IMG/VR virus record: IMGVR_UViG_3300024999_000083
From: a virus
DNA length: 64,000 nt
Direction: 5' to 3' (one strand)
Each line of letters opens with the position of its first letter. Position 1 is the stretch's first letter. This document shows positions 21,356 through 56,924 of this stretch, piece by piece. The notes under the pieces were generated by a model. That model had not been told where the DNA came from. It did no database searches and was given only the letters and a program-made list of their open reading frames with translations. The translations under genes were made by a program, and so were the position numbers.

Positions 21356-22100
21356 ATTACCATTTATTAATAGAGTGTGTGATGTTTGTGGAGAAGATAA
21401 GGAATCAGGATTTAAGATACATTTTTGTAAAGAAGTGAATATGTATCTATGTAATAAACATTATCAACAAATAAAATTATATGGAATGATAAAGCATAGA
21501 ACTAGAAAAGATTTAAATGAGATAATTATATACGATACATATGCTGAAATTATTTTGTATGACTTGGAAAATAAAGAAAAGTGCAGAGCAACTATTGACA
21601 TTGAGGAAATTGATAAAATTAAAGTTTATAAGTGGTCTGAGATGGGGAGTGGATATGTAACAGCAACGTATTACAAAGGAGATATGAAAACTGGAATATT
21701 ATTACATAGATTAATAATGGGACTAGATGATGAAAAAGATTTTGATCATATTGACGGAAATAGAAAAGATTGTCGAAAACAAAATTTAAGACCAGCGAGT
21801 AGTTTAGACAATGGCAAGAATAGATTGAAAACAAATACTAATACTTCTGGTTTCATAGGTGTATCTTGGAGTAAGGTAAAAGATATGTGGAGAAGTTATA
21901 TTCAAGTGGATTATAAACAAAAGCATTTAGGTTATTTCGATTCTATTAAGGAAGCAACATTTGAAAGAATTAAAGCAGAAATGAAATATTATAAGCAATA
22001 TAGAAACTTGTATAATGAAAATGAGTATATAAAAGTTTATGGGGAAGAAGATATAGTTAACCTAAAGCAAGAATTGTTACTATATAAAACCAATAAATAA
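21339..22100 (+). CDS. HNH homing endonuclease with AP2 DNA-binding domain
   Basis: HIDGNRKDCRKQNLR (HNH_3-like) then FIGVSW...WRSYI...KHLGYFDSIKEA (AP2-like); GAGGT RBS; start overlaps the helicase 3' end. Confidence 0.6.
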   Translation: MKKGSKLPFINRVCDVCGEDKESGFKIHFCKEVNMYLCNKHYQQIKLYGMIKHRTRKDLNEIIIYDTYAEIILYDLENKEKCRATIDIEEIDKIKVYKWSEMGSGYVTATYYKGDMKTGILLHRLIMGLDDEKDFDHIDGNRKDCRKQNLRPASSLDNGKNRLKTNTNTSGFIGVSWSKVKDMWRSYIQVDYKQKHLGYFDSIKEATFERIKAEMKYYKQYRNLYNENEYIKVYGEEDIVNLKQELLLYKTNK

Positions 22101-33534: not shown

Positions 33535-34305
33535 TTGGCAAATAAGATAATTAAAAATTTACCATCAGAAAGAATTGGTGAAGAAAATGTAAATTCATAT
33601 GGATCAACTTTTAAAATCATAGAATATAACAGTTCCAATGATATTCTAGTACAATTTTATGATGGATACAAAAGAAAAGCAAGATATTATAGATTCTTAA
33701 GAGGGGAGGTGAGTAATCCATATGATAAAACTGTTTGTGGAGTAGGGTATTATGGTGAGGTAGACCATACTGAAATTTTTAAACGCAAACAACACCACAG
33801 GTGGATAAATATGATGCATAGATGTTATAACGCAAAAATATATGAAAAATGCCCTAGTTATAAAGGTTGTACTGTATGTAAAGAATGGCATAATTTTCAG
33901 GTGTTTGATAAGTGGTACGAAGAAAATTATTATGAAATTGATGGACAAACAATGGAAGTAGATAAAGACATATTGGTAAAAGGTAATAAAATATACTCAC
34001 CTGAAACTTGTGTATTTGTACCTCACAATATCAACACATTATTTTTAAAAAGCGATGGTAAGCGCGGTGAATTTCCAATTGGAGTAAGTTTGCATAAAAA
34101 ATCAAACACTTATATAGCATCATGCAAAAACAAATTTACAAAAAAAGTAACTATCGGCTATTACCCTACTATAGAATTAGCTTTCAATACATATAAAAAG
34201 TATAAGAAAACAATTATAAAAGAAGTTGCAGACGATTATAAAGATAAAATACCACAAAGATTATATGAAGCTATGTATAAATATGAAGTAGAAATTACTG
34301 ATTAA
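33535..34305 (+). CDS. HNH-type homing endonuclease-like protein
   Basis: Pattern W.NMMHRCYN...Y..C.VC.EW.NF..F..W...NY.E resembling phage HNH endonuclease families. Confidence 0.4.
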   Translation: MANKIIKNLPSERIGEENVNSYGSTFKIIEYNSSNDILVQFYDGYKRKARYYRFLRGEVSNPYDKTVCGVGYYGEVDHTEIFKRKQHHRWINMMHRCYNAKIYEKCPSYKGCTVCKEWHNFQVFDKWYEENYYEIDGQTMEVDKDILVKGNKIYSPETCVFVPHNINTLFLKSDGKRGEFPIGVSLHKKSNTYIASCKNKFTKKVTIGYYPTIELAFNTYKKYKKTIIKEVADDYKDKIPQRLYEAMYKYEVEITD

Positions 34306-36430: not shown

Positions 36431-36919
36431 ATGGCAAAGATTAAACAAATTGGTGGAAATCCTAAAGAAATAGCTTATGATGCAAAGGATATCTTAATAT
36501 GGCTCAATTGTTTAGAAAATAAATCACATCCTGCTTACATGACTACGCCATATGATTTTACTCAGAATAATCAAAAATGTCCTATATGTGAAGGAAGAGA
36601 ACCTATTACTGCATATGTCATTAGATATTATGCAGGTAAAAAATTAAAAGAAGATCAAAATATAAAATTCAAAGTAATCAAAGGTGCTGTAACAACTATT
36701 GAAGAAGCAAAATCAGAAGTATTTAATATATTTTGGAATATTATCAAGAAGAACTGTAATAATGTTATTGCAGATGATTTAGTAATATTTGAGGATATTG
36801 CTCCAACTTGTCATTGTGGTTGTGGTATGGTAGCAACAGATGGAAATGTTGAGATAGTTGGTAGGAAACAGGGATTATTTGATAAAGGTGAGTTTATTAT
36901 TGATATTGTAAAAGCTTAA
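36431..36919 (+). CDS. hypothetical protein (CPICEG, CHCGCG motifs)
   Basis: ORF. Confidence 0.45.
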   Translation: MAKIKQIGGNPKEIAYDAKDILIWLNCLENKSHPAYMTTPYDFTQNNQKCPICEGREPITAYVIRYYAGKKLKEDQNIKFKVIKGAVTTIEEAKSEVFNIFWNIIKKNCNNVIADDLVIFEDIAPTCHCGCGMVATDGNVEIVGRKQGLFDKGEFIIDIVKA

Positions 36920-37647
36920 CTATAATGATAATTAAAATAGGCACTTTCTCCTGAAACAAAATCTCTAAGAACCTTTTTAACGAAACCAAATGGATTCTTA
37001 ATATGAAATTTAGCATTGAATAATGTATTTAAAGCACTTTTTAATTGATCTGCATTAGCATTGACCTCTCTTAATATTTTGGTTACAGTAATTGCAAAAT
37101 CTGAATCTGGGTCTATTTTAGAATCTCCAAGAGTTTTTATGATAGACCAATCATTTTCTTGATTCCAAAATTCTTCTTTTGCAGGTTCATTTTCTGATTT
37201 AACCATACATACATCTTTAGATATTGTTGTATTAGGTGTAATGATCAAGTCACTTTGTCTGTCTTCTTGGACATCTTGTCTTTTTTTATCCACAGGTTTA
37301 GATTCAATTGGTTTTTCCATTCCAATTAGTTTATACAATACATCTAAATCAATTCTATATGATTTTCCATGATACCAATCTTTAGATTCAAATTGTTTAG
37401 ATATTAAAACTTTCTTATCTTCTAAATCCTTAATTGCTCTTTGAATTGTCTTAGTAGATTTATTTAGTTCTAAGGCCCACTGATCTACAGTCTTATAAAC
37501 CCATAAAAAACCCTCCTTATATTTTGTTGCTCTATTTAACCAATATTTCAAACGAGACAATAGTTCAGCTTGGGTCTGACCAAAAATATTAACTACAGTA
37601 GGTTGAACAACAATAGGCATTTCATTAGGAATAATTAAATCTATCAT
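36916..37647 (-). CDS. HTH replication-initiator/replisome-organizer-like protein
   Basis: Winged-helix segment WVYKTVDQWALELNKSTKTIQRAIKDLEDKKVLI; sits next to the DnaA-box cluster. Confidence 0.45.
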   Translation of the reverse strand: MIDLIIPNEMPIVVQPTVVNIFGQTQAELLSRLKYWLNRATKYKEGFLWVYKTVDQWALELNKSTKTIQRAIKDLEDKKVLISKQFESKDWYHGKSYRIDLDVLYKLIGMEKPIESKPVDKKRQDVQEDRQSDLIITPNTTISKDVCMVKSENEPAKEEFWNQENDWSIIKTLGDSKIDPDSDFAITVTKILREVNANADQLKSALNTLFNAKFHIKNPFGFVKKVLRDFVSGESAYFNYHYS

Positions 37648-38125
37648 GATTAAAACCTTCTTTCAGCATTTTCCCATAGCAATGCTAAAGACTGTTTACA
37701 AATTTTTAAAATCATGATAAAATGACTTAAAGAATTTAATACAAGTCTTCAGGGGTCTTCTATGAAATGTTAAGTTTGGTCGCTCTGCATTTCATAGAAG
37801 ATTTTTTCATGTGCTATTTAAAGTTATTAAGATAATTTGATTAATCAAACTCAATAAAATAAAAAAGTTAGTAGCATGTACATTTCTGCACCAACTACTA
37901 ACTTTGAAATCCTTAATCTAATTTATTATCCAAAGACTTGATTTTCTTAATGTCTTTAGTTATAATAATCTCAAGAACTAAAAGCTTAATGTTGGTTCAG
38001 AACATTTTGCTAGAAAAAACTTGATCTCTTGCAAAGGTCAGGTTTTTTCGCATTTTATTGAGTTGTTAATTTATTAGAGTTATATATTCGACAAGTTGAT
38101 ACAATTCTCCTTCTAAGAATAAAAA

Positions 38126-38196
38126 TTATCCACAGGTAATAGTATATACCAGAATTTCCTTTGTGGATAGATAGTCCTCGACAAAATTTATCCACA
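38126..38196. promoter_or_regulatory. DnaA-box cluster (candidate origin/DnaA-regulated region)
   Basis: TTATCCACA at 38126-38134 and 38188-38196, CTATCCACA (reverse) at 38162-38170, in an AT-rich intergenic region; IR AAGCACTATCCA/TGGATAGTGCTT at 38238-38272. Confidence 0.55.
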
Positions 38197-38297
38197 TGTT
38201 GATAAGTGTTCGGGTCGGATAATAAAAGTGAAAAAATAAGCACTATCCAGTTAATTTTGGATAGTGCTTTTACATTTTAACTATTTCACCTTAACAT

Positions 38298-39119: not shown

Positions 39120-39139
39120 GTTTATTACCTCCTAAGATA

Positions 39140-39335
39140 ATGTATACATTTTAAGGTGCAATAATGCTAGGTATACACATGTATACACGTAAACTTTTGT
39201 ATACATTGATTATAGCATAAAATGGTAAGGTGAGCAAGATGTATAAAAATGTGTTGCAAAGTATGGGGTATGACTATATAATATCCATAAAGGTAAATAC
39301 CCCATACTTTATAGTGGGGTATAATATGAAGGAGG
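39140..39335. promoter_or_regulatory. iteron/operator region (parC-like) upstream of parM
   Basis: Four GTATACA copies at 39143-39215; 13-bp perfect IR AAGTATGGGGTAT / ATACCCCATACTT at 39261-39315; third GGGGTATAAT overlapping a -10. Confidence 0.5.
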
Positions 39336-39342
39336 AATATTT

Positions 39343-40194
39343 ATGGCAATTCAGATCATTCCAATCGACTGTGGACGCAACACTGTAAAGTTATTAAACA
39401 ATCAATCATTTAGATCTGTGGTTGGAGATTGGCATCATAGGGAAATATCTGATAATGAAGAATATGAAGTAATTATCAACGACAAAGAAAAACATTTTGT
39501 AGGACAATTGGCACTCGATGAGTCGTTTGCCCCAATCGAGATGAGTACAGCATCAAAGATTCATGAACAGACAAGAGTGCTTTTTTTAACTGGGGTCGGC
39601 CTATCCTTAGAGGAAGATGACAGTGATTTATATATTTGCACAGGTGTACCAGTTGATCAGTTCAATGCCACAACAAAATCTGCATTGGAAAATTTATTAT
39701 TTGGCAAATACGATATTCAAATTAATGGAGAACATAAAAAATTCTGTATAAACAATCTAAATATTATACCTGAATCTGTTGCCAGCTTTCAGTATGCATT
39801 ATCGAAAGATGAAAATTTATCAATTGGTAAGAAAAGAATAATTGACTTAGGAAGTTTAACTGTAAATTATAGTTCTATGAATGGGAGTAAATTTGTAACA
39901 AGGGATTCTGGAACACTGGCTTTCGGTTCCATTAAACTAAAAGGAAATCAAATTGATAATTCTCAATATGTTGGAAAAATTGTAGCTGAACTTAGTCAAA
40001 GATTCACAGACTATGAAATCTCTGATCGAGTTTTATTAACTGGTGGAGGAGCATTGCAATTTGGTGATTTATTTAAGAAATATTATCCTAATTGCTCAGT
40101 TTTAGATAATTGTGTCTATGCTAATGTAGAAGGTTATCACAGGATGGGTGTGAAAAAATGGGCAAAAGCACAGGCGAACTCACAGGTAGAGTAA
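39343..40194 (+). CDS. parM: actin-like plasmid segregation ATPase (ParM/StbA family)
   Basis: N-terminal phosphate-1 motif IDCGRNTVK (DxGxxxxK); about 280 aa; followed by a small basic gene. Confidence 0.65.
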   Translation: MAIQIIPIDCGRNTVKLLNNQSFRSVVGDWHHREISDNEEYEVIINDKEKHFVGQLALDESFAPIEMSTASKIHEQTRVLFLTGVGLSLEEDDSDLYICTGVPVDQFNATTKSALENLLFGKYDIQINGEHKKFCINNLNIIPESVASFQYALSKDENLSIGKKRIIDLGSLTVNYSSMNGSKFVTRDSGTLAFGSIKLKGNQIDNSQYVGKIVAELSQRFTDYEISDRVLLTGGGALQFGDLFKKYYPNCSVLDNCVYANVEGYHRMGVKKWAKAQANSQVE

Positions 40195-40409
40195 AAAGAA
40201 AAGGTGTTTATTTTAATTTAGACGATGAAGATGAATTATTACTTTATGAAAAGGCAAATGAGATTAGAAATTTTAGCAAATGGGTTAAGAAGCAATTGAT
40301 TAATGATGGGGTCGTAGTTAAAGAGGGAATAAAAGAGACTGTAGTAGAACATATTAAGGTTGAAAGAAGGAAGATAGAAAAGGATGAACTTGACGATATG
40401 ATGATTTGA
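40158..40409 (+). CDS. ParR-like small DNA-binding adaptor
   Basis: 83-aa ORF overlapping the parM 3' end. Confidence 0.35.
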   Translation: MGKSTGELTGRVKRKGVYFNLDDEDELLLYEKANEIRNFSKWVKKQLINDGVVVKEGIKETVVEHIKVERRKIEKDELDDMMI

Positions 40410-40724
40410 GACGCAACTGTAATGTTGTGTCTTCTTTTTTATTGTGGATAGTATGTAGGAATATAAGGGGTATTATATGGGGTAAAGGGATGATGTCGAG
40501 TAAGTATAGAGGAATGTTTGTGGTATACCACATATTTATTAGATTAATGAATAAATCACCTTAAATATCACAAATTAAATCAAATTTAAGCATACAAAAA
40601 TAATGTTTAGTATGATTTTGTGAGTCTGATTAATTAACTTCATTTGAGACCAAAGATTTGGGATAAATTAACTAACATAATGGACAATTATAGGTTGATA
40701 TACATTGATATAGACTTTTAAAGA

Positions 40725-40997
40725 ATGAGAAGAGGTGGTCTAGATTTGAACAGAATGTTAAGTAAATTGGAGGTGGATATTCTAATACATCTCTCAGAAA
40801 ATGAACTATTAGATCCAATGAATTCTAGAACCATTAAGAATATTTCTAAAGCAGTTGATATTAATTATTTCAGAACTAGAACCAATGTAAATCATTTATT
40901 TAAGTTAGGGTATATTTCTATGGGATTTCGAGAAAGGGCATCGAATACCTATTATTTAAGTAAAAAAGGAGTTGAAATGATTAATGAGAAAACCTGA
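40725..40997 (+). CDS. winged-helix transcriptional regulator-like protein
   Basis: 90 aa with HTH-like segment. Confidence 0.35.
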   Translation: MRRGGLDLNRMLSKLEVDILIHLSENELLDPMNSRTIKNISKAVDINYFRTRTNVNHLFKLGYISMGFRERASNTYYLSKKGVEMINEKT

Positions 40998-41223
40998 AAT
41001 TGGATTAAAACTAAAATCAGAAATCATTAAACCATCTACTCTAAAACGATGCACTAAATGTAAATCTTTAAATGTAGTGGGTTATGGAACGATTATAGGT
41101 CATGGGTGGATTAATCTAGGGGATATGAGTGTAGAGGATACTTGTTGTGCTGATGAATTTGAAGTTTATGATGGTGAGAATCTGAGTTATGAATGTAGGG
41201 ATTGTGATCATGAGTGGGAGTAA
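40984..41223 (+). CDS. zinc-ribbon protein
   Basis: CTKC...CRDCDH. Confidence 0.4.
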   Translation: MRKPEIGLKLKSEIIKPSTLKRCTKCKSLNVVGYGTIIGHGWINLGDMSVEDTCCADEFEVYDGENLSYECRDCDHEWE

Positions 41224-41235
41224 GGAGGAATTATT

Positions 41236-41538
41236 ATGAATAAATTATACACAATTTTGCAATCAAACAACCCTCTTTACAATAAAACCCAAAAGCGTCT
41301 AAAAACCATAGTTTTCAATTGTGAAATTTGTGAAACCAAATGTGCAACTTTTAATGAAAATTCAATTATTACAAAAGATTCTAGTAATGGATTTATTCAT
41401 GTTTTAAATTATTGTCCTAAATGTTTACAGAGATTCCCCATTCAATTTAATTTAAATGATAATAGTGTTTCTATAGCATGGCCTAGTTGGGATGGTAAGG
41501 ATGAAGATGGAATTTATCCGAGGAGAAGAGTTGATTAA
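41236..41538 (+). CDS. zinc-ribbon protein
   Basis: CEICETKC...CPKC. Confidence 0.4.
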   Translation: MNKLYTILQSNNPLYNKTQKRLKTIVFNCEICETKCATFNENSIITKDSSNGFIHVLNYCPKCLQRFPIQFNLNDNSVSIAWPSWDGKDEDGIYPRRRVD

Positions 41539-41567
41539 GGTACTTTAATTTAAGGAGGTATTATTAA

Positions 41568-41780
41568 ATGAGAATTAAATTATCAATAATGGTTAATAAA
41601 GGTCGTAGAATCCATGACATTATTAATCATTTGGAATTTGATAGTGTTGATGATTTTGCTGATTATAAAAGAAAATTTTATGAGGATTTAATGGTTAGAG
41701 GTTGGAGAAAGGTTTATATGAGTGCTAATCAATGTTATAAAGGCAATTTGGTTTTGACTCCTTATTTTATAAGGGAGTGA
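41568..41780 (+). CDS. hypothetical protein
   Basis: ORF with AAGGAGG RBS. Confidence 0.4.
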   Translation: MRIKLSIMVNKGRRIHDIINHLEFDSVDDFADYKRKFYEDLMVRGWRKVYMSANQCYKGNLVLTPYFIRE

Positions 41781-41783
41781 TTT

Positions 41784-42377
41784 ATGAGAAAAACAAAGGG
41801 AAAATTAATTCCCAAACCAAGCAAAAAACTATTATTTTCACTTTTATTATTAATCCTGTTGTCAATACCTCATCCTGTCTCAGCTAAAGGAGAATTGACT
41901 ACAGAGGAAGCAAAAAGTATTTTAAACATTGTCATTAATAAAACTTATATATTGCTTACTTCTTCTTCCTCTAATTATATCTATCCAGTAGATGGAATAA
42001 TTTCAAGTTTTTATGGCCCAAGAGAGTCTTCATTAGATGGATTTCACTATGGTTTAGACATTGCAGTAGTAGAAAATAGTCAAATTCATGCTTCAAATTT
42101 TGGCATAGTAGTTAAAGCAGAATTTAATGAAATGATTGGAAATGTAATCTATATCAATCATTCCGATGGAAAACAAACTGTGTATGCACATAATAATCAA
42201 TTATTAGTCAATGTTGGAGATAAAGTAAATCAAAATGATGTAATTGCTTTTTCTGGAAATACAGGATTACTGTCCAGAGGACCACATGTACATTTTGAAA
42301 TTCGTACTAATAATGGAACTAATTCATTAAATCCAATGAATTATTTACCTGCAAAACAAAATAAACCCCTCAAATGA
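41784..42377 (+). CDS. secreted M23 family metallopeptidase (peptidoglycan hydrolase; conjugation-associated lysin candidate)
   Basis: Signal peptide; HYGLDIA and GPHVHFEIR motifs. Confidence 0.75.
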   Translation: MRKTKGKLIPKPSKKLLFSLLLLILLSIPHPVSAKGELTTEEAKSILNIVINKTYILLTSSSSNYIYPVDGIISSFYGPRESSLDGFHYGLDIAVVENSQIHASNFGIVVKAEFNEMIGNVIYINHSDGKQTVYAHNNQLLVNVGDKVNQNDVIAFSGNTGLLSRGPHVHFEIRTNNGTNSLNPMNYLPAKQNKPLK

Positions 42378-42381
42378 GGGG
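42364..42381 (-). terminator. hairpin CCCCTCA..TGAGGGG with T-run on the minus strand
   Basis: On the minus strand the hairpin is followed by TTTATTTTGTTTT; on the plus strand it overlaps the M23 stop codon. Confidence 0.5.
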
Positions 42382-42401
42382 ATGAAATGGAGCATATGAT
42401 T

Positions 42402-42503
42402 AATTATTGAACTAATTTTCCTAATTGCTGTACTATATCAACTAATTCGTATGCTCCATATCCCATTAATCCTACTCCAATTACTGTTCCAAATATTAAA
42501 AAC
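42402..42503 (-). CDS. 33-aa hydrophobic peptide (type I toxin-like)
   Basis: GGAGTG RBS then ATG; MFLIFGTVIGVGLMGYGAYELVDIVQQLGKLVQ; convergent with the M23 gene. Confidence 0.3.
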
Positions 42504-42750
42504 ATAAATTTTCACTCCTTTAAATCATATTTTAATGACTATATTGTTACCAAACTATATGTCGAATATACATGAATTAATGTAAATTTTAAGACAAGAA
42601 CCCTATATTAACCCCCTATGTTAAGTATAGTACACTATAAATCCTACAGCCCTTTAATACCAATGGTCTTAGAATTGAAAATGTGGGGTCTTCTTATATA
42701 AGGAGGCAAGATTTGCCGACTGTTTTAAATTTCAAAGGAGGTTGTTTACA

Positions 42751-43002
42751 TTGAATGAATTTTTAAGTTGGTCAACAAAGATTTGTTTGGCTATGACTGC
42801 TCTTGGTGGAGGATTGGCTATGCTCATGATAGTATGGTCTGGGATTATGGATATAATTGGAAATGGGCAATGGAAGGCACAAGCCAAGGAATTAAAGGAA
42901 TCGGTAATTAGAGGATGTATTACTATAATCGTTGGGCCTTGGGTTATAAAAATTCTTTGGACTATACTCAAAGGAATTTTTCCAACACTTCCTACATTTT
43001 AA
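42751..43002 (+). CDS. VirB2/TrbC-like conjugative pilin
   Basis: GGAGG RBS, TTG start; two TM helices with Gly-rich ALGGGLAML segment. Confidence 0.5.
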   Translation: MNEFLSWSTKICLAMTALGGGLAMLMIVWSGIMDIIGNGQWKAQAKELKESVIRGCITIIVGPWVIKILWTILKGIFPTLPTF

Positions 43003-43031
43003 TTATTGCAATTCTAAAGGGGATGATCATA

Positions 43032-44066
43032 ATGTTTACAGTTGGAGAAGTTGGAGACGCAATTATTGATTTATTTATTAAACCACCATCTCCTGAAACT
43101 GTTGATAAAGTAAATGGGGCATTATTTGATGTCCCTACTCCAGAAACGATAGAGAGTGTCAATAATGCTTTATTTAATGCGCCTACACCACATGATATTT
43201 CTACGGTTAATGGGAGATTAGAACATTTTATTACTGATTCATTAGTACAAAACTTTGCACAATTATTTCTTCATACACCTAATGTACTATTAGAAAATCC
43301 AACAATATTAGTTTTACACTCATTCTTTTTAAAAATAATTATTGCTTTTTCATTCGCAGGAATAGTATATTTTGGAATTATGCAAGTCATGAACAAAGGT
43401 AGTAAATATCAGACAAATGAATATATTGTAAAAATAGCTCAATCGATGGTAATTATAAATATAGTAATTATAGCACTACCAACACTAATAGAAACAACAA
43501 ACAAATTAACTATAGCAATTCTTTCAATAGGTGGAACAGAAGCAGAGATGATAAAGGCTCTAACCCCTCAGTACGGTTTAGGCTTAATCATATTCACACT
43601 AATATTTGCTTTAATACTAATCAATCTAATATGGTATTACTTTATGAGAATGATTTCTATTATGTTTTTAGTTGCTACAGCACCCATATTCTTTTTTCTA
43701 TGGTTATTTCCTAAACATCAAAATATGAGACAAATATGGATTGATGAGCTATTGGATAACTTACAAGCACCTATTATTCATGCGATTATTATGGTCATTT
43801 GGTTAGGTTTTGAGTCATCTATTTCAAAATCAAGTCACGGAGGACTTTATCACATTATGCTTTGTATAGCAGCAGGTTCATTTATGATTCAAGCACCTAG
43901 TTATGTGCAACAATGGATTAGTTATGGACACCAAGCACCTACTCCTATTCAAATGTTCAAAGAAATTAAGTATGGATTAAGTCCTAGAAAACTTATCGGT
44001 TATGGAGGATTTGGAAGAATGGGAGGAAACATGTTTAGAGGAAGAGGAACTACAAGAAGGAGGTAA
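43032..44066 (+). CDS. polytopic membrane protein (VirB6/TrbL-like)
   Basis: Multiple TM helices; position after the pilin. Confidence 0.5.
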   Translation: MFTVGEVGDAIIDLFIKPPSPETVDKVNGALFDVPTPETIESVNNALFNAPTPHDISTVNGRLEHFITDSLVQNFAQLFLHTPNVLLENPTILVLHSFFLKIIIAFSFAGIVYFGIMQVMNKGSKYQTNEYIVKIAQSMVIINIVIIALPTLIETTNKLTIAILSIGGTEAEMIKALTPQYGLGLIIFTLIFALILINLIWYYFMRMISIMFLVATAPIFFFLWLFPKHQNMRQIWIDELLDNLQAPIIHAIIMVIWLGFESSISKSSHGGLYHIMLCIAAGSFMIQAPSYVQQWISYGHQAPTPIQMFKEIKYGLSPRKLIGYGGFGRMGGNMFRGRGTTRRR

Positions 44067-44070
44067 TTTA

Positions 44071-44418
44071 ATGTTTAATAATGAGATGTTTGAAACTAAT
44101 CAAATCATTGAAATGAAGGATGAAATATTCTATGGACTTACAGGCAAACAAACAATTTATTTAATATCTGGGATAGTTTTAAGTTTATCTATATTTAATA
44201 CTGCATTACCTATTATTGCAAAACTATTCATTCTACCAAATATCGGTATTCCTACTGCAATTCTAGTTAAAACTGATATTGATCAAGGAATAGTTTCTTT
44301 CTTCAAATTTAAGTGGAGAGGGGTGACAAAACAAAATGTTACAATACAATCTTTACCCAAAAGTAAATTATCTTTTAGTAACAAAAGAAGAACAAACACT
44401 ACTCCGATCCAAGTTTAA
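44071..44418 (+). CDS. small membrane protein (VirB3-like)
   Basis: AGGAGG RBS; two TM helices; overlaps the next ATPase gene in another frame. Confidence 0.4.
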   Translation: MFNNEMFETNQIIEMKDEIFYGLTGKQTIYLISGIVLSLSIFNTALPIIAKLFILPNIGIPTAILVKTDIDQGIVSFFKFKWRGVTKQNVTIQSLPKSKLSFSNKRRTNTTPIQV

Positions 44419-45841
44419 ATATCTATTAAATTCTCTAAATGAACCGTCTAGAATCATTTGTAGAACTGACTCAAATAAATTGAATAAAGACACACAAATC
44501 AATGAATCAATTTATCATTTAATAACTAATGCTGATATTTATGAGAATTTAAGTAATTCTGAAATAGATTATACTCAAAATAAATGTCCTACATCAAATA
44601 TTCAAGTAAAAGAACATCGAAAATATATTGCTATTACTGAAAACAATGAAAAATATTTTGCTAAATCAATCAAGGTTATCCAATTTCCACAAATGCTTTC
44701 TACTGGATTCATAAACAACTTAATGATTTCTGACACTGAAATTGCCCTTACAATCTTTCCATTGCCACAAGAAGAGGCTGTGAAGGCAGTAAAAAAGAGA
44801 ATTGATACTAATGAAGCAAATGTAAATTGGAAGGTCGTAAAGAACCCTAATCAAGAGTTTTATGTAGAAGATGAAATTGTACTAAAACTTCAAAAGACTA
44901 TGGTTGATCTTATGGGTAATGAAGAAAAACTTTGTATGGTTGGATTATATATCTTAATTAAAGGACAAACACTTAAACAATTGGAAACAAAAGCAAAACA
45001 AATATCAATGCTTTTGGATGGAATGCAAATTAGGTTTAAATTCGCTAATTATGAACATTTTAATTGTTTTAAGAATTTTAGAGCATATAAAGAAATTGAT
45101 TATGTAAATGAGTTAAAAGTATTTTTGACAAGTGTAATTAGTAATTTTTATCCATTTGTTAGATATGTATCAGGGGATGGAGTTATTATCGGATATGATT
45201 ATCAAAATTATCAATTGATTAAAATTAATTTTTCAGAACTCTTCAATCTGTCATGGTTTATTTTCGGAATTTCAGGAAGTGGAAAGTCATTTGCTGTAAA
45301 GAGCATTGTAAAGAAAATATCTAGTCATAAGAAGATTTATATTCTTGATATTACTGGTGAATATGCCAAACTAAAATCAAAGAATATTATCATAATATCT
45401 AAAGATTTTGAGAAATTTCTATTATACACTGATTTTAAAGATTGCATGATTATAATTGATGAAGCATGGGATATTTTAAAAACTGATAAAGTTATTAAAA
45501 GAGTAGTAGCAATAGCGAAAGGATATAGAAAGAGGGGAGTAGGTGTTTTAGTCTGCACTCAAAACATTGCTGATACAAGTAAAGAGGATATTGAATTAAT
45601 TATTAAAAACTGTGCTAATACTTTAATTCTTCATTTGACTTCACTAGAACTTCAACATATTAGCGAATACATGAATATACCTCATCATATTATTGATTAT
45701 CTTTCTAGGATTGAAAAAGGACAAGGGTGGATGACCATAGGAACAAAGCAATATGCTTTTAGACCAATATTTAGTGATGAAGATTACTTGTTATTCAATA
45801 CTAATTATGAGGAAATGAAAGGGGTTGGTTATAATGGGTGA
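44336..45841 (+). CDS. VirB4/TraC-like conjugative ATPase
   Basis: Walker A GISGSGKS; Walker B MIIIDEAWD. Confidence 0.6.
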   Translation: MLQYNLYPKVNYLLVTKEEQTLLRSKFKYLLNSLNEPSRIICRTDSNKLNKDTQINESIYHLITNADIYENLSNSEIDYTQNKCPTSNIQVKEHRKYIAITENNEKYFAKSIKVIQFPQMLSTGFINNLMISDTEIALTIFPLPQEEAVKAVKKRIDTNEANVNWKVVKNPNQEFYVEDEIVLKLQKTMVDLMGNEEKLCMVGLYILIKGQTLKQLETKAKQISMLLDGMQIRFKFANYEHFNCFKNFRAYKEIDYVNELKVFLTSVISNFYPFVRYVSGDGVIIGYDYQNYQLIKINFSELFNLSWFIFGISGSGKSFAVKSIVKKISSHKKIYILDITGEYAKLKSKNIIIISKDFEKFLLYTDFKDCMIIIDEAWDILKTDKVIKRVVAIAKGYRKRGVGVLVCTQNIADTSKEDIELIIKNCANTLILHLTSLELQHISEYMNIPHHIIDYLSRIEKGQGWMTIGTKQYAFRPIFSDEDYLLFNTNYEEMKGVGYNG

Positions 45842-47531
45842 GAAACTTAGCAAGATTAAAGATTTGGCAATTAAATCAGGTAAATATTCTGCTTTATATA
45901 GTGGAAAATTTATTTTAGGTGGATTAGGTTATGCTGTTCAAATTGCTTCAAACGGAATATTAGGAATGAGTATTCCAGATTATAAATTGCCTAATTTGAA
46001 GTTTGGTGATGATAAAACTTCATTAGGAGATAGAGTAGTTTTAACTCCTAGCAAATTTCTCCTTAAAGGAAATGGTATAGTGGTTGGTAAGGATTTTAAT
46101 ACAAAGAATGTAATTAGTTATCCAATAGATCATTTTGACGATCTTTGTAAACATTCTATTTATGTTGGTGCTCCTGGAAGTGGCAAATCAAATTTAGCAG
46201 AAAATGTAGCCATTCAAATATCTAAAATTAATAATTTACAAAACTTTAATACAGCAGGATTTTGTGTTATAGATGTTGCAGATGGGGCCTTGATTGATAA
46301 TGTTTTATTGTCTATTCCAGAAAATAGATTAGATGATGTAGTTTTATTAGACTTCTCTAATAAAGACTTTCTACCAGGAATTAATCTCTTAGAATTTGAT
46401 GAAAAAGTAGAGAAACAATTTCCACACTTTATTCATGCTGAAATAATCTCATTCTTTAAAAAGCGATTTGGTGAACAAATTGGTTTTGCAAGTGAGGATC
46501 TTTTATCAAACTCACTCAATGCTATTCTGAAGCAAACAGATTATCCAAAAACACTTTTAGGAATTATTAAAATGTTAACTGAGGTAGATTATAGAGAACA
46601 AATATTAAAATCATTAAGAAAAAACAAAAGAAATGCTTCTGTTGTTAGATATTGGGATAGATTTGAAGCACAATCACCATCTGTAAAAAGAGATATCGTC
46701 AAACCTCTGTTAAACAAGGTTGGCAATCTTACTAATAACGATTATTTAAAATCTATTATATGTCAAAACAAATCTACCATTGACTTTAGAACAATAATGG
46801 ATGAAGGCAAAATTCTATTGATTAAAGCTCCTAAAGTTGCAGTTGGTAAAGTTAATATAGAAATATTAATACCACTAATCCTTTCAAAATTTTGGATATC
46901 TGCATTATCAAGATTTGATATTACTGACAAAAACCAAAGAAGACCTTTTATGCTTTTTCTTGACGAGCCACAAATGTATTTGTCAAATGAAGCAGGAATT
47001 GAAGAAATGCTAACAGAATCAAGAAAATACCGACTATGCTCACATTTTTTCTTTCAGTCTCCAGAACAAACTCAACTTCAATCTGTCATTAGAATGATGT
47101 TAGAAGTGCATCCTCAGATTATATCATTTGCTATAGGTAGGGGTGGCGCACAGACGTTGTTTAAAGAATTTGAAACAGGTGATGAAGAAAAAGATATGTC
47201 CATAAGATATACAATTCTTAATCTACCTAAATATCATGCTTTGTGTAGATTCTTATATAAGAATGAAAAGAGTGTATCTATTATTAAATGTGATCCTCCC
47301 ACTAAACCTTTGCGAAAAAAAGTACCCGATATTATTACTGAAAATAGTCAAATGTATTTACGTTCTGTTGATGAAATTATGGAAGAAATTCTTGAATCAG
47401 ATTATATCCCAGAACCAGATTTTAGTTTAATAGAGGTGAACAATAATGAACAGCAAAGATTTAATGTTGAAGAAGTTGACTTTAGGAACAAAGTTTCAAG
47501 ATTTAACAAACCGAGATTTAGAGATAATTAG
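45825..47531 (+). CDS. type IV coupling protein (VirD4/TcpA/FtsK-like ATPase)
   Basis: Walker A GAPGSGKSN; Walker B MLFLDEPQ. Confidence 0.65.
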   Translation: MVIMGEKLSKIKDLAIKSGKYSALYSGKFILGGLGYAVQIASNGILGMSIPDYKLPNLKFGDDKTSLGDRVVLTPSKFLLKGNGIVVGKDFNTKNVISYPIDHFDDLCKHSIYVGAPGSGKSNLAENVAIQISKINNLQNFNTAGFCVIDVADGALIDNVLLSIPENRLDDVVLLDFSNKDFLPGINLLEFDEKVEKQFPHFIHAEIISFFKKRFGEQIGFASEDLLSNSLNAILKQTDYPKTLLGIIKMLTEVDYREQILKSLRKNKRNASVVRYWDRFEAQSPSVKRDIVKPLLNKVGNLTNNDYLKSIICQNKSTIDFRTIMDEGKILLIKAPKVAVGKVNIEILIPLILSKFWISALSRFDITDKNQRRPFMLFLDEPQMYLSNEAGIEEMLTESRKYRLCSHFFFQSPEQTQLQSVIRMMLEVHPQIISFAIGRGGAQTLFKEFETGDEEKDMSIRYTILNLPKYHALCRFLYKNEKSVSIIKCDPPTKPLRKKVPDIITENSQMYLRSVDEIMEEILESDYIPEPDFSLIEVNNNEQQRFNVEEVDFRNKVSRFNKPRFRDN

Positions 47532-48210
47532 AGTTGTTAGAGATTTACAAATTGTTTCAAGGAGCCAACTTCAAATTATGTTCTTTCCTACAAAGCAAAG
47601 TTTAACTATCTGTAATAGAAGATTAGCCAAAATAGAGAAATTAGGATTTATTAATAGAACTCCTATTACTTTGAACGGTGAATCTTTAATTACTGCTGGA
47701 AAATTACTTTGTCTAGCAGGAGGTACTTATATGTCTAAATTGCCATCTGATTACACTCATCAGTTATTGATGAATGAAATTTATGCTTTGTTATTTAGAG
47801 AGCAGAATTTGAATCGAATTATCATTAAACAATACAAACCTGAATTTGTTTATAAATTTAGGGACAAGGATGAAGGTAAGCAATATATTTTAAGGTCTGA
47901 TATTTTAACTGTATTAGAGAAAAATGGAATGGATACAACTCTATTATTTGAGATAGATGCAGGAACAGAAACAAAGAAACAATTAAGAGAAAAGATTAAT
48001 ATTTATGAAAAAGTATCTATGAAAGTAAAGGGATTTCCTCAACTGTTTTGGTTGGCAAATGACAAGGGATTCAGAAAATTAATTAGTTTGGACAAGACTG
48101 TTAATATAGCAAAAGTAGAAGAATTGAGAGAAAATTTTTATTTATGGACAAGGTATCCTGATATGAAAAGGACAAGATTAATTCCTGATATTGTTGTTTG
48201 GAAAATTTAG
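47446..48210 (+). CDS. replication-relaxation family protein
   Basis: N-terminal LTNRDLEIIRVVRDLQIVSRSQLQ winged-helix typical of the PF13814-like family; downstream of the coupling protein. Confidence 0.45.
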   Translation: MNSKDLMLKKLTLGTKFQDLTNRDLEIIRVVRDLQIVSRSQLQIMFFPTKQSLTICNRRLAKIEKLGFINRTPITLNGESLITAGKLLCLAGGTYMSKLPSDYTHQLLMNEIYALLFREQNLNRIIIKQYKPEFVYKFRDKDEGKQYILRSDILTVLEKNGMDTTLLFEIDAGTETKKQLREKINIYEKVSMKVKGFPQLFWLANDKGFRKLISLDKTVNIAKVEELRENFYLWTRYPDMKRTRLIPDIVVWKI

Positions 48211-48524
48211 ATGAATGATTAGGAGGTATGATTATATGGGATTTTTATAATTTGTTAAGTAGTTTTACTAAACCTGAAATTGATATTGATGAATTAGTTG
48301 ATTTTATAGCTGAAGGGACACATATTGACAGAGGAATTATTGAAATTATTTTAGAGGCAGAAGATATTTATTTGAGAGAAAAAGGGATCATATATTAGAT
48401 TGGAGAGTGATGGATGTCACTCTTTTCTTTTTGAGGATTATTTTATTAAATTTATAAAAACTAGTGCTAAAAAGTTGCATTTGGAATAGATAATCAATAT
48501 AATGTGTGAAAGGGTTGATTTGAG

Positions 48525-50123
48525 ATGATTTTTAAATTTGATAAAGTTGGAAATATGGAAAATATAGATGTGGAAGGAGATATACAGGATATGGCAAGGA
48601 AAGGTAAGGATAAGGATAGGTTTAATCAAATGGATATGAATGTGGTTAATCAGGTAAAGGAAGAGGTTTTAAATACTATGACAGAAACACAAAGTCAAGT
48701 AGCTGCAGGATTTGAAAGTCTAGATGAAATTATTGGTGATGAGGATATGGTTCAACAACATGAAACAGAATTAGTTAAAGAAATGGATGCGGAAGTAGAC
48801 GATGAAAAATTAAAGCAACAAATGAGGGAATTAAATATGAGGAATATGCCTAGCTTGAGTAATTTGAGTAGAATGAAAGATGAAGGGGAGGGGAAGGAAA
48901 GTAGTGGAGATGGAGTAGGAAGTGATAAAGAGCAAATTCCGAAGGATCATTTTAATGAAGAATACAGCGATGCTCAAAGGAAGAAAGATGAATTAGCGAA
49001 GAAAAGGGAAGCGAATAAATTAAAGAAACAGATGAAAGAAAGATTAGAGCAATTAAATAGTGCAGTAGATAAGTCATTTGAGTTTGATAACGTACTTGTT
49101 ACTATGCGTGATGGTGTGCCGAAAAAGTTTCATTTATCATTGTCAGTGACGCAATTGGCTGAATTATACCTATCAGGACGCATATTCTATAAAAGTTCAG
49201 AGCAAAGGGGAGAAAAACACACAAGTAAAGGTGATGTTCCACTAATTAATGTGAAGCATACAAAGGATATATTAAACGCTCTATTATCTTCTTCATCTGT
49301 CAGTGGGGGATGTATCTACCTTAATTATGCAAAAGAAAATGAAGATGACTTATTTTTTGACTCTCAGAACAATACTTTATCAGGAAATTCTCCACTTTCA
49401 GTCTTAGATGGAGCCCACAGATTGGAGGCTATGGTGCTCTGGTATAGGGCGTTCTCTAAATTAAAAGATATTTCTACAATGAAAAATCCAAATGACTTTT
49501 ATTTTCCCGTAACAATAGAGAACGCTACGCACGAGGAGTCTAAGAATATTTTCGTCGAACTGAATAGTTTTAGTCTTCCAATTAGCAAGACTCGCATTGC
49601 CTTCCATGACGTATATAGCTTAAGTAACGTGATTGCGCAGAAGGTAATGAATGAATCCTCTCTTCGTAGCAAAATAGAGGTAATTTCTAATTCACTTCGT
49701 AAATCCAGTTCTAATGTAATGACGTTTAGTAGTTTATCAAAAGGATGTTCTTTATTTTCTCCTGACACTAAGAATCAAGCAAATGAAATTGGTTCTTATC
49801 TCTGTGACTTCTGGGATACCATCATAGAACTTTTCCCTAAAATATATGGTAATGTTACTCCTGAAGTAAAACAAATAGAGAAACTTAATACCTATATCGG
49901 AGAAGTTATGTTTATCCATGCGCTGTTCGGCATTTCTGTAGAATTACAATTTGTTAGTGATTGGAAAGATAAACTTAAAAAATTGACACAACCAAGTAGT
50001 TTTTTGAGTCGAGATAATGACTTATGGATAAGAAATATTACTCGTAATGAAGGGAAATTAATCAATACTAGTAAAACTCAAGATTTTGTGAAGGATCAGT
50101 TATTGGCGAAGGTATTAGGTTAA
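48525..50123 (+). CDS. DGQHR/DndB-like (ParB/Srx-fold) protein with acidic N-terminal extension
   Basis: DGAHRLEA motif in the central domain; 150-aa acidic low-complexity N-terminus. Confidence 0.45.
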   Translation: MIFKFDKVGNMENIDVEGDIQDMARKGKDKDRFNQMDMNVVNQVKEEVLNTMTETQSQVAAGFESLDEIIGDEDMVQQHETELVKEMDAEVDDEKLKQQMRELNMRNMPSLSNLSRMKDEGEGKESSGDGVGSDKEQIPKDHFNEEYSDAQRKKDELAKKREANKLKKQMKERLEQLNSAVDKSFEFDNVLVTMRDGVPKKFHLSLSVTQLAELYLSGRIFYKSSEQRGEKHTSKGDVPLINVKHTKDILNALLSSSSVSGGCIYLNYAKENEDDLFFDSQNNTLSGNSPLSVLDGAHRLEAMVLWYRAFSKLKDISTMKNPNDFYFPVTIENATHEESKNIFVELNSFSLPISKTRIAFHDVYSLSNVIAQKVMNESSLRSKIEVISNSLRKSSSNVMTFSSLSKGCSLFSPDTKNQANEIGSYLCDFWDTIIELFPKIYGNVTPEVKQIEKLNTYIGEVMFIHALFGISVELQFVSDWKDKLKKLTQPSSFLSRDNDLWIRNITRNEGKLINTSKTQDFVKDQLLAKVLG

Positions 50124-50192: not shown

Positions 50193-51317
50193 TTATATTA
50201 CGATTAAACCAGACTCAATATTTTGTTTAAATTCCTCAAATTGCTCAGGAGTATTATCATCTCCATATAATTTATGATATAAAGTATGCACTTTCTTGCA
50301 TAGACATACCCCTAAAGGATACTTGTCGTGCATTTCAATTATTTTTATTTTTAATGTATGTAACTCATCTGAAGAATATTTACCAATTTCCGTATGGACA
50401 GGAAGTTCACATTCACTGACAACTTCTCTTAATATTTTATTAAAAGAATATAAGTGGTGAATCACATTAAAACCTTCACCTGTTATTACACATTTATAAT
50501 TACAATTGAACATACTTTTCTTTTTCCAATCTGTAATAAATTCTCTTAAATATACACCTAAACTAGAGTATCCTCCTTTCCAAGAATTAACGTTGCTGTG
50601 ACGATCACGATTACAAAGAAAACAACCTTCTCCTCCAAACAATAAACTATTTAACGATTTATATTGAATTATATCTGGATGATAAGGACAAATATACTTC
50701 AATGGAATCGCACAGCTTGTATATTCCTGTGGTGGTAAATAAAATCCATATTTTGCGAACTCTTCAAATGCTATTTCATATGTATATTTCCTATTTTTTA
50801 TTTTGCCTAACCCTAAATACTTAAGAAAATCATCATATGTTTTTATATTTTCCTTAGAATTTTCAATAAACCATTTAGCGGATGGCAAACCATAATCATG
50901 TCTTTTTAATTCTCTAAGTGTTATTGACCTTTTTATTTCACTATATATGAATTTAAAAATTAATATGTATTCGTGATATGTTTTTGTTGGTTTCCAACTT
51001 TCTCCTATTGTTTTTTCATATTTTTTAATAGGAATACTAACAGGAATACTTGGATTAAAAACCAATTTAACAAAATCAACATAATTATCAACAATTGATT
51101 CTGGATAATTTTTAACAAACCAATTTTGGGTCGGCAAATTATTCATCTTTAAATCTTCTTTATTTGGTATTTCAATTAATTTACCGCATAATTCTTTAAA
51201 CTTTTCCAAACATTCTTTATATTTTTTAGTATACTTTTTAGACATTTTTATACAACCTTCTTTCTTTTTATTAAACAGTAGTTTTATATTTAGATATCGC
51301 TTTTTGAAGCAATTCAC
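50193..51317 (-). CDS. HNH-like endonuclease family protein
   Basis: C-terminal CNYKCVITGEGFNVIHHLYSFNKI...HTLYH His/Cys motifs. Confidence 0.35.
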   Translation of the reverse strand: MNCFKKRYLNIKLLFNKKKEGCIKMSKKYTKKYKECLEKFKELCGKLIEIPNKEDLKMNNLPTQNWFVKNYPESIVDNYVDFVKLVFNPSIPVSIPIKKYEKTIGESWKPTKTYHEYILIFKFIYSEIKRSITLRELKRHDYGLPSAKWFIENSKENIKTYDDFLKYLGLGKIKNRKYTYEIAFEEFAKYGFYLPPQEYTSCAIPLKYICPYHPDIIQYKSLNSLLFGGEGCFLCNRDRHSNVNSWKGGYSSLGVYLREFITDWKKKSMFNCNYKCVITGEGFNVIHHLYSFNKILREVVSECELPVHTEIGKYSSDELHTLKIKIIEMHDKYPLGVCLCKKVHTLYHKLYGDDNTPEQFEEFKQNIESGLIVI

Positions 51318-56309: not shown

Positions 56310-56924
56310 CTATATTGCGGTTAGGAGTTGATTTGATTTTATGTAATCATCGTAGTACATCCATTTGAGAGGTTCGTTGGTAATTGGGTGTTTCCCTGCG
56401 TATTCACTAATTCCTCTACAACATGAACATATGCCACTGCTGCTAAATATACCATATTTCTTACGAGCATCTGTTTGTGACTTAAATATCTCCCCTGTAT
56501 TTAAGCATATTACTTTTTTACTACGTCTCTCACTAGTTAAAGCATATTGTTTTTCTAATTCTACTTTAGCATCATAATCGCACCATTTTAATTCGACTCC
56601 CTGTTTTAAATATTTTCTAACGGATGTTGTGCTAATTTTTAATTGTTCGGCTATTAATAGTGTGTTTTTTAAACCATTTTCCCATAAATCACAAACTGTT
56701 TTAACCAAACTACTACAAGCATATTTGTGGCATTTTAACCAATCTATATCTGATTCCTTAAAATTAAATAATTGTGGTAATTCTGAATTCATAATGCTAT
56801 TCTTTATGTACTTCCATTCAGATTTTAAACTATCAATTCTTATAATTTTTACATTATTTTCTCTACACAGTCTATCTTTTTCATCATCAATATATTTAAC
56901 ATTTTCTTTAGTTTTATCAAACAT
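56310..56924 (-). CDS. homing-endonuclease-like protein (HTH plus NUMOD-like DNA-binding motif)
   Basis: ISTTSVRKYLKQG (HTH) and KVICLNTGEIFKSQTDARKKYGI (NUMOD-like) motifs. Confidence 0.35.
   Translation of the reverse strand: MFDKTKENVKYIDDEKDRLCRENNVKIIRIDSLKSEWKYIKNSIMNSELPQLFNFKESDIDWLKCHKYACSSLVKTVCDLWENGLKNTLLIAEQLKISTTSVRKYLKQGVELKWCDYDAKVELEKQYALTSERRSKKVICLNTGEIFKSQTDARKKYGIFSSSGICSCCRGISEYAGKHPITNEPLKWMYYDDYIKSNQLLTAI

Follow-up and report, generated by a model that had tools for sequence, protein, structure and literature searches.

Positions 41784-48210 of the viral record IMGVR_UViG_3300024999_000083 (64,000 nucleotides were analysed, and are here called the window) encode a minimal type IV secretion system (T4SS) and DNA-processing set of the Gram-positive type, which is real, is maintained by selection and lies in a plasmid-like maintenance region. 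Each part is of a known kind, and it is the combination of the parts and their carrier that is novel. With a probability that we put at about 0.5, the system would serve conjugative transfer or mobilisation of the phage replicon, by relaxase-initiated export of single-stranded DNA that is coupled by a type IV coupling protein (T4CP) and mediated by the T4SS. A sequence-only reading had already described the genes as a contiguous, co-directional conjugation module. All seven open reading frames (ORFs) are present on the plus strand where that reading had placed them, in the order that it gave, and every motif that it quoted was found. We confirm the observation and support its interpretation, with the qualifications that the gene set is not fully canonical and that transfer is unproven; we infer rather than show conjugative transfer because the carrier is itself most likely a jumbo phage. 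The proteins, with E-values for their defining matches and lengths in amino acids (aa), are as follows.

41784..42377, plus strand: secreted or anchored M23 (LytM-type) peptidoglycan endopeptidase; Pfam Peptidase_M23, 1.9e-27
42751..43002, plus strand: VirB2/T4SS-pilin-like protein of 83 aa with two transmembrane (TM) segments; Pfam T4SS_pilin, 0.0029
43023..44066, plus strand: VirB6/TrbL-like polytopic membrane protein, a candidate channel component; relatives found by profile carry TrbL_4
44071..44418, plus strand: PrgI/VirB3-like small membrane protein of 115 aa; Pfam PrgI, 2.7e-4; ribosome-binding site GAAGGAGGA upstream
44336..45841, plus strand: VirB4-like T4SS ATPase, short form, 501 aa; NCBIfam VirB4_plasma, 1.2e-29
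45825..47531, plus strand: VirD4/TrwB-type coupling ATPase (MobB/DetA-like), 568 aa; from homologue domains, profile and fold
47446..48210, plus strand: Replic_Relax protein, candidate MOBC-type relaxase of 254 aa (winged helix-turn-helix and PD-(D/E)XK nuclease); PF13814, 2e-9

The window is AT-rich (G+C about 28%), and its genes lie on the plus strand as far as about 50 kb and on the minus strand beyond. Comparison with relatives, ribosome-binding sites and gene calls made independently led to corrected gene starts. For the pilin-like gene the start is 42751 (TTG, 9 nt past AAAGGAGG), for the VirB6-like gene 43023 or 43032 instead of 42915 (giving a product of 344-347 aa), and for the PrgI-like gene 44071, while 45834 is a possible alternative start for the coupling ATPase. 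The core operon begins at 42751 and ends in a terminator-like hairpin at 48402-48425, its genes overlapping or lying close together. The module is a block of one strand and one order, as had been claimed, except that the M23 gene forms a separate transcription unit.

The first ATPase appears from its sequence to be a member of the VirB4 family. It matches NCBIfam conju_CD1110 (3e-29) almost as well as VirB4_plasma, both being families of integrative and conjugative elements (ICEs) of Mollicutes and Bacillota; CedB follows at 2.8e-13, and Pfam DUF87 is matched above its cut-off (2.4e-10). The NCBIfam score of 102 bits, against cut-offs of 590 and 325, denotes family-level similarity rather than membership of an equivalog. 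The single sequence matches the VirB4 structure 4ag5, and a family profile run against the Protein Data Bank (PDB) returned 4ag5 first (1.8e-16), followed by HerA and TrwK. Walker A (GISGSGKS, aa 311) and Walker B (MIIIDE, aa 371) are both intact, the dN/dS is 0.08-0.14, and an exact look-up found no identical sequence on record. Both this protein and gp155 of Bacillus phage G fall in the PHROG family phrog_2666, annotated 'terminase large subunit'; the depositors of gp155 annotated it as VirB-like. A terminase identity was rejected: no terminase family is found among the Pfam or NCBIfam matches, and the PDB profile search returned no tailed-phage terminase and a weak match (7e-4) to the FtsK/HerA-type NTPase B204 of STIV2. 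The label of phrog_2666 is probably an annotation error of a kind that can spread, as its members act VirB4-like in all other tests.

The second ATPase is a T4CP of the VirD4/TrwB/TcpA type. Its Walker A motif GAPGSGKS lies at aa 115 and MLFLDE at aa 376. As a single sequence it has no Pfam match above threshold, and single-sequence PDB searches with it and with the Replic_Relax protein gave nothing meaningful. Homologues beyond its own family (1e-46 to 1e-37, about 30% identity) carry PF10412, PF02534 and PF12696, the domains named TrwB_AAD_bind, T4SS-DNA_transf and TraG-D_C, and a profile of 31 sequences matched DotL (1.1e-8) and TrwB (4.7e-8) in the PDB. The AlphaFold2 model (pLDDT 73.5) matched TrwB in Foldseek with an E-value of about 1e-10 and a TM-score of up to 0.69, as well as Cagbeta, with HerA at a similar score, and it has an all-helical insertion resembling the all-alpha domain of T4CPs. 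Aligned with DetA of the Staphylococcus aureus plasmid pWBG4, the protein scored 96.4% (hhalign, E 1.1e-9), and it matches phrog_5156 at 2.1e-72. Hidden Markov model (HMM), profile and fold tests therefore lead to VirB4 and T4CPs for the two ATPases, and not to terminases, and the test named in advance as able to refute the sequence-only reading came out in its favour. Relatives of the coupling ATPase occur in 130 cultured-phage records, all from phages of Bacillus, Geobacillus, Lysinibacillus or Brevibacillus save one from a Microcystis phage. They include virulent SPO1-like Herelleviridae, and the same list of cultured-phage homologues holds none from Herelleviridae of Staphylococcus, Listeria or Enterococcus. 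Separately, we note that the nearest cellular relatives of this protein are T4CPs of Patescibacteria (the candidate phyla radiation, CPR), and that CPR are abundant in the same groundwater.

The nuclease that completes the DNA-processing pair matches PF13814 with 38.3 bits against a cut-off of 25.3. This is a PD-(D/E)XK family (PMC3424549) that corresponds to the MOBC relaxase class of CONJscan (PMC5357655), and MOBC relaxases are PD-(D/E)XK enzymes with an N-terminal winged helix-turn-helix (PMC12857230, PMC3424549, PMC5357655). In the studied member, TraX of pAD1, a winged helix at the N-terminus is joined to an active site like that of restriction endonucleases (PMC12857230). In pWBG4, DetB is a MOBC relaxase by CONJscan and DetA a coupling protein of the VirD4/MobB type (PMC4993578); the two are arranged like mobBC of CloDF13, and transfer has been demonstrated experimentally for the pWBG4 family (PMC4993578). 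The Replic_Relax protein aligned with DetB at 97.5% (hhalign, E 5.2e-12), and six residues (H105, E133, D152, E169, K183 and Y187) that are invariant across the phage Replic_Relax proteins and DetB are putatively catalytic. Its plasmid matches are staphylococcal 'replication-relaxation' proteins only, and its dN/dS is 0.02-0.17. Because the protein belongs to the MOBC relaxase family and the pair is homologous to DetA and DetB, a candidate relaxase lies within the module, and there was no need to look for one outside the window as had been proposed. The protein carries the MOBC domain of the TraX, MobC and DetB type, and nicking is predicted.

A relaxase-family nuclease encoded in the operon beside a coupling ATPase points to donor-side DNA processing, and this bears on the suggestion that the T4SS serves a task other than export, such as DNA uptake of the Ced or ComB kind, delivery of proteins or effectors, or exclusion of competing plasmids and phages. 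In favour of such a task are the match of the VirB4-like protein to CedB, which takes part in archaeal DNA import, a weak match of the second ATPase to CedD (3.4e-4), and the fact that the T4SS-like genes of Patescibacteria, the group with the closest cellular relatives of this second ATPase, are not tied to known plasmids. Conjugative VirB4 proteins, however, match 16 orders of magnitude better than CedB, and we regard a non-export task as very improbable.

The membrane proteins complete a putative channel. Of 18 small proteins scanned, seven matched T4SS_pilin (best 3.7e-6) and five TrbC, with no competing family, all the Pfam matches of the pilin-like protein being under the Pfam cut-offs; it also matches phrog_3528 (2.1e-6), and its gene has a dN/dS of 0.04-0.17. 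The polytopic protein has 5-7 hydrophobic segments and at least 5-6 TM segments. Its direct matches are weak (NCBIfam pLS20_p028 at 2.6e-4, and TrbL_3 in two relatives), and since a word-indexed search recovered its close family only, an exhaustive search of 1.84 billion proteins was made with a family profile. This gave 64 relatives, 57 of which were scanned: TrbL_4 was matched by 26, T4SS_pilin by five, TrbL/VirB6 by three, and no other family by any. The protein aligns with gp153 of phage G (hhalign, 78.7%, E 1.7e-5), which itself matches TrbL_4 above the Pfam cut-off (1.8e-11). The link to VirB6/TrbL is thus indirect but consistent, and the protein is probably of this family. An AlphaFold2 model built from a shallow alignment was unusable (pLDDT 37.7). 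For the PrgI-like protein, all six family members scanned match Pfam PrgI (best 2.1e-5, all under the 27-bit cut-off), and its TM hairpin, its size and its place beside the VirB4-like gene also fit VirB3/PrgI.

The M23 protein has the properties of the cell-wall hydrolase of a Gram-positive T4SS, with a single N-terminal hydrophobic segment (a signal or an anchor) and both metal motifs, HxxxD and HxH, intact (HYGLD, aa 88; HVH, aa 168). It may be considered a candidate for the enzyme that opens the cell wall. Its gene, with a dN/dS of 0.15-0.19, lies upstream of the module in the related contigs L007-L014 and L031-L034 and is missing from the diverged contigs L004-L006, which keep the other module genes. 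Between it and the core operon are a terminator-like hairpin, a minus-strand gene of 33 aa and a spacer of 373 nt.

More than 15 independent metagenomic and IMG/VR contigs show this order of the module genes, with proteins that are 70-99% identical, the IMG/VR relatives being on contigs of 112, 138, 227 and 230 kb. Pairwise dN/dS values are 0.02-0.24 for every module gene, with dS up to about 1.9, and are higher (about 0.28-0.43) for the faster-evolving ParM and DndB-like genes at its flanks. All module ORFs are intact in every relative, and the Walker motifs and putative nuclease residues are invariant. The low dN/dS throughout implies that the module is maintained by selection. The idea of a relic without current function, left to decay after some earlier recombination with a plasmid, could appeal to the low scores against curated conjugation families, the truncated VirB4 and the failure to find a VirB8; the intact ORFs and invariant motifs contradict it, and we reject it on dN/dS values of 0.02-0.24 with synonymous sites near saturation. 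Exact copies of window proteins are present in the groundwater metagenomes of PRJNA268031. Neither the module nor 25 kb of the window matched cultured phages or the plasmids of PLSDB in megablast, and two scans of GTDB species genomes gave no prophage or plasmid copy, only one distant match in Chitinophagales.

The nearest cultured analogue of the module is found in phage G, a 497-kb jumbo myovirus of Bacillus, and consists of gp146 and gp150-gp156. The best or only cultured match of the VirB4-like protein is gp155 (2e-13 database-wide, 8e-32 locally), that of the Replic_Relax protein is gp146 (1e-4) and that of the VirB6-like protein is gp153, and gp156 matches the coupling ATPase (3e-28). 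The order is also the same, with small TM proteins (gp150-gp152), the VirB6-like protein, a small TM protein (gp154), the VirB4-like and the T4CP-like protein in succession. Phage G differs in that protein identity is only 23-27%, that gp156 has an N-terminal extension of about 380 aa which the coupling ATPase of the window lacks, and that gp146 is encoded on the opposite strand, 3 kb upstream. Its module is the subject of database notes only ('VirB-like', 'MsbA-like'), and we found no functional study of it in the literature.

Among plasmids, the det cluster of pWBG4 is similar in that the coupling ATPase gene is followed directly by the Replic_Relax/MOBC gene, and in that it also holds a VirB6-like gene, small TM proteins, a VirB4 and a wall hydrolase. 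In pWBG4, however, this DNA transfer and replication (Dtr) pair stands ahead of the channel genes, whereas in the window it comes after them; VirB4 and DetA have 862 and 852 aa, the hydrolase is of the CHAP type and not M23, and the carrier is a 40-kb plasmid. A core of VirB4, VirD4, VirB6-like and VirB3-like proteins is shared more widely with the minimal T4SSs of Gram-positive bacteria and Mollicutes (MPF-FA/FATA), among them CDS5, 13, 15, 16 and 17 of the mycoplasma ICE, Prg of pCF10 and Con of ICEBs1, and the best NCBIfam matches of the VirB4-like protein are the Mbov_0397 (mycoplasma ICE) and CD1110 families. Mycoplasma ICEs have a functional minimal T4SS made up of VirD4, VirB4, VirB6-like and VirB3-like proteins, in which VirB1 and VirB8 are absent (PMC12857230). 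The predicted relaxase of the window is of the MOBC class, in contrast to the MOBT and MOBP enzymes listed for Tn916/ICEBs1 and pCF10 (PMC12857230).

The case for transfer is thus drawn from the complete set of parts, the homology of the pair to DetA and DetB, and the functional minimal T4SSs of mycoplasma ICEs that lack VirB1 and VirB8. In the mechanism that we propose, the MOBC-type Replic_Relax protein would bind through its N-terminal winged helix and nick an origin of transfer (oriT) on the element. The hexameric VirD4/TrwB-like coupling ATPase would then take up the nucleoprotein and pass single-stranded DNA to a translocon formed by the VirB6-like, VirB3-like and VirB2-like proteins and the VirB4-like ATPase, and the secreted M23 endopeptidase would open the peptidoglycan locally. 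The net effect would be the passage, independent of particles, of the phage replicon or of mobilised DNA to an adjacent cell.

Several observations weigh against this proposal. In calling the set a canonical minimal apparatus, the sequence-only reading was right about the core parts and went too far for the rest: all scores are far under the curated cut-offs of named conjugation families, the VirB4-like protein is short and lacks about 200 N-terminal residues of typical VirB4s, and no VirB8/TcpC/PrgL-like protein was found, in that no ORF of 40400-48400 combines an N-terminal TM segment with a soluble domain of about 150-300 aa and none of the small ORFs there matches a VirB8-type family, in scans that very divergent forms would escape. 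No adhesin was identified. Some relatives have no M23 gene, which in the window is part of the transcription unit ahead of the core operon. Intergenic sequence between 37.6 and 51.7 kb, scanned for repeats and k-mers, gave no oriT, but only a parC-like array and DnaA boxes, and no repeat array beside the module. The virion-gene evidence consists of tail and lysis genes of relatives with 73-94% identity in the module proteins (85-88% in the two ATPases), and no virion gene was found in the window or in the examined parts of the two closest contigs (112 and 138 kb). Finally, CP-51 and other strictly virulent SPO1-like phages lack VirB4 and VirB6 but keep a ParM, coupling ATPase, MOBC-like and pilin-like protein.

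The last point implies some role of the core pair for which a self-encoded channel is not required. In CP-51, gp96, gp91 (phrog_5156) and gp90 (phrog_9381) share their PHROGs with the ParM, the coupling ATPase and the Replic_Relax protein of the window, and the neighbourhood holds the pilin-like gp97, ParM gp96, the ribbon-helix-helix (RHH)-like gp95, small TM proteins, gp91 and gp90, and neither VirB4 nor VirB6. Unlike the window, SPO1-like phages and Bacillus siphophages have no VirB4-, VirB6- or VirB3-like genes. It is therefore conceivable that the module serves the intracellular cycle of the phage, the nuclease nicking to prime or resolve replication, the coupling ATPase and ParM positioning or pumping the replicon (at the septum or into the forespore), and the VirB4-, VirB6- and VirB3-like proteins being accessory. 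The retention of the ParM, coupling ATPase, MOBC-like, pilin-like and RHH subset without VirB4 or VirB6, both in virulent Herelleviridae and in siphophages of Bacillus and Geobacillus, agrees with this, as do the PHROG label of phrog_9381, the relaxase family, which reads 'replication initiation by nicking', the finding that 129 of the 130 cultured-phage records with coupling-ATPase relatives are from phages of endospore formers, and the position of the module beside a DnaA-box origin and a partition locus. Against it, a set of VirB2-, VirB3-, VirB4- and VirB6-like proteins with a secreted wall hydrolase suits a trans-envelope channel and not an intracellular motor, and the closest cellular counterpart of the pair, DetA/DetB, is carried by a conjugative plasmid (PMC4993578). 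On this evidence we judge an intracellular role to be unlikely. The searchable literature yielded no published function for the phage ATPase/nuclease pair and no dedicated study of a phage-borne T4SS or relaxase. The 'TrbC/VirB2, Replic_Relax, FtsK/SpoIIIE, RHH' genes of Bacillus siphophages have been noted in passing as 'plasmid-like' (PMC9658697, PMC7685451), and were taken by those authors as hints of a plasmid-prophage state and not of a transfer system (PMC9658697, PMC7685451).

The nature of the carrier is central to any reading of transfer. A phage-like replisome had been noted as an unusual neighbour of the module. Replisome genes are indeed upstream of it, but they are more than a mere neighbour, in that the carrier itself is most likely a jumbo phage. 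The upstream region encodes SSB, DnaB, RecJ, DnaE, RecD2, ribonucleotide reductase (RNR), dNMP/dTMP kinases and several HNH endonucleases. On the minus strand a DnaD-like helicase-loader gene (36916-37647) adjoins a non-coding gap of 650 nt (37648-38297) with three DnaA boxes, TTATCCACA at 38126 and 38188 and CTATCCACA at 38162 on the other strand. This gap (boxes at 38126-38196) is likely to be a replication origin served by host DnaA, a feature closer to plasmids than is usual for a large lytic phage. Between the origin and the module lies a partition locus of the ParMRC kind, which is context rather than part of the T4SS.

39120..39342, no strand assigned: parC-like centromere/operator repeats, a motif containing TGTATACA in four copies; function suggested by position
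39343..40194, plus strand: ParM/ALP actin-like segregation ATPase; Pfam ALP_N, 7.6e-21, above cut-off
40158..40409, plus strand: candidate ParR-like RHH protein of 83 aa; overlaps the end of parM; N-terminal beta-strand/helix/helix

A perfect 14-nt inverted repeat (39258-39271/39297-39310) is present upstream of parM. ParM matches phrog_691, 'partition protein' (5.5e-47), a PHROG that also includes CP-51 gp96, and the candidate ParR, whose assignment we infer, has no HMM match and weak similarity to gp30 of phage 0105phi7-2. As a side observation on this locus (39120-40409), the same ParM PHROG and a similar RHH protein adjoin the coupling-ATPase gene in the virulent CP-51. Judged from these genes, ParM, the parC-like repeats, the ParR-like gene, and the DnaA boxes with the DnaD-like loader may be regarded as phage-plasmid features. 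Serine recombinases occur in relatives. The mixture of replication and partition genes upstream of the module fits a jumbo phage or a megaplasmid alike.

Virion genes were found on the larger contigs. Walking the 227-kb contig from the module leads first to homing endonucleases, then to an Amidase_3 endolysin and then to a tail block. The endolysin (CwlV 1.8e-25, PlyPSA 3.5e-10) adjoins a small TM protein, and its C-terminal domain recurs in the lysozyme of another relative. The tape measure protein of 1609 aa matches that of Brevibacillus phage Sundance (2e-41) as well as tape measure proteins of Bacillus phages, tail and baseplate-hub proteins match Thomasclavelia phage TR-TP1 (1e-74) and Geobacillus virus E3 (2e-27), and a tail-fibre-like protein of the same contig has an NPHxVTxxQ motif. 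On contig L006 a tail fibre, a holin and an endolysin are 3-10 kb from the module. Other searches around the module were negative: an upstream walking step met no recognisable virion gene, the right end of the window has only a 52%-identical relative in IMG/VR, the tail fibre of L006 has no relative there, and a 696-aa ORF beside the lysis genes has no phage match. The search with the baseplate protein returned the 227/230-kb lineage only, so the closest contigs of the window are not linked to virion genes.

It must be asked, then, whether the carrier is a conjugative megaplasmid, perhaps with an integrated prophage, that virus-detection pipelines have misfiled, in which case the module would be ordinary plasmid conjugation. 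A ParMRC-like partition locus, a DnaA-box origin, a DnaD-like loader, and a T4SS with a relaxase, all within one compact region, are plasmid hallmarks, and about 70 kb around the module in the closest relatives of the window hold no virion gene. Prophage-carrying conjugative megaplasmids of Bacillota are known (PMC12934698), and huge-phage surveys have called plasmids by their partition and conjugation genes (bioRxiv 10.1101/572362). However, in the contigs of 227-230 kb a lysis gene and the tail block lie 25-45 kb from the module with only homing endonucleases, and no integrase boundary, seen between them; replisome and tape measure protein alike lead to Sundance, which is the best cultured match for the DnaE of the window and a top match for the tape measure protein; many free-standing endonucleases of the HNH and GIY-YIG types, dNMP/dTMP kinases, RNR and ThyX are present as in large virulent phages; and phage G, which forms virions, has a homologous module. 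We therefore find a misfiled megaplasmid quite improbable, though we take this rival seriously. For the related contigs with tail and lysis genes the carrier is a phage. That of the window is probably not a plasmid but an uncultured, tailed jumbo phage or phage-plasmid lineage of groundwater, whose genome would presumably form virions of its own.

Homing endonucleases (HNH, GIY-YIG) are unusually dense in the window (21318-22100, 33535-34305, 56849-57877) and in relative L019 (12892-19641, three in 10 kb), and large virulent phages typically show such a density of free-standing homing endonucleases. The window lacks tRNAs, Rfam families and any paralogous family of endonucleases. A TnpB-like gene (OrfB_IS605/Cas12f1-like_TNB) is located at 58685-60013 on the minus strand and matches transposase PHROGs at 6.6e-39. 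An HNH-like gene of 374 aa (50193-51317, minus strand) is split in the 227-kb relative (L057, 2881-5283) into ORFs of 164 and 108 aa, between which is a 396-aa ORF that by eye is TnpB/IS605 OrfB-like.

The remaining features are at the two ends of the module.

42404..42505, minus strand: conserved gene for a 33-aa hydrophobic peptide (MFLIFGTVIGVGLMGYGAYELVDIVQQLGKLVQ); ribosome-binding site AAAGGAG 7 nt upstream
48228..48398, plus strand: conserved 56-aa protein, last gene of the operon; follows the relaxase gene in all relatives; no family match
48402..48425, plus strand: terminator-like hairpin at the end of the T4SS operon; 10-bp stem, then a T-run
48525..50123, plus strand: DndB/DGQHR-like protein; Pfam DndB, 1.1e-20; always after the module

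The antisense gene has a terminator of its own, a terminator-like hairpin at 42381-42366, and a gene of 33-36 aa was independently called at this place in at least six relatives (L004, L006 and L031-34). It may encode a regulator, a small toxin or a holin-like peptide. The DndB/DGQHR-like protein is very divergent, with 28-59% identity among syntenic relatives and a dN/dS of about 0.3-0.4, a pattern that would suit an early-transferred anti-defence or establishment gene.

Phages and conjugative elements are usually treated as two separate transmission strategies. Phage-plasmids combine virion genes with plasmid maintenance (PMC7969092, PMC12282955), but we found no description in the literature of one with a complete T4SS and relaxase of its own. 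In phage-ICE tandems a phage is joined to a conjugative element as one transferable unit (PMC13651849); these are two separable elements lying side by side, in contrast to the present module, which is embedded between the replication/partition and late genes of one genome. Surveys use conjugation and partition genes to exclude phage identity, and a conserved T4SS and relaxase operon in genomes that bear tail and lysis genes blurs this rule. We tentatively suggest that a tailed jumbo phage, and by extension phage G, possesses two transmission routes, virions on the one hand and self-encoded, receptor-independent conjugation through a MOBC relaxase and minimal T4SS on the other, and that the pair kept by SPO1-like phages would let them hitch through the channels of ICEs or plasmids of the host. 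In well-studied Bacillus phages, the widespread and unannotated pair of phrog_5156 and phrog_9381 gains a testable function from the finding. A working module would allow receptor-independent spread, persistence and movement that do not kill the donor, and the transfer of very large DNA, such that a virus may move DNA between cells without particles.

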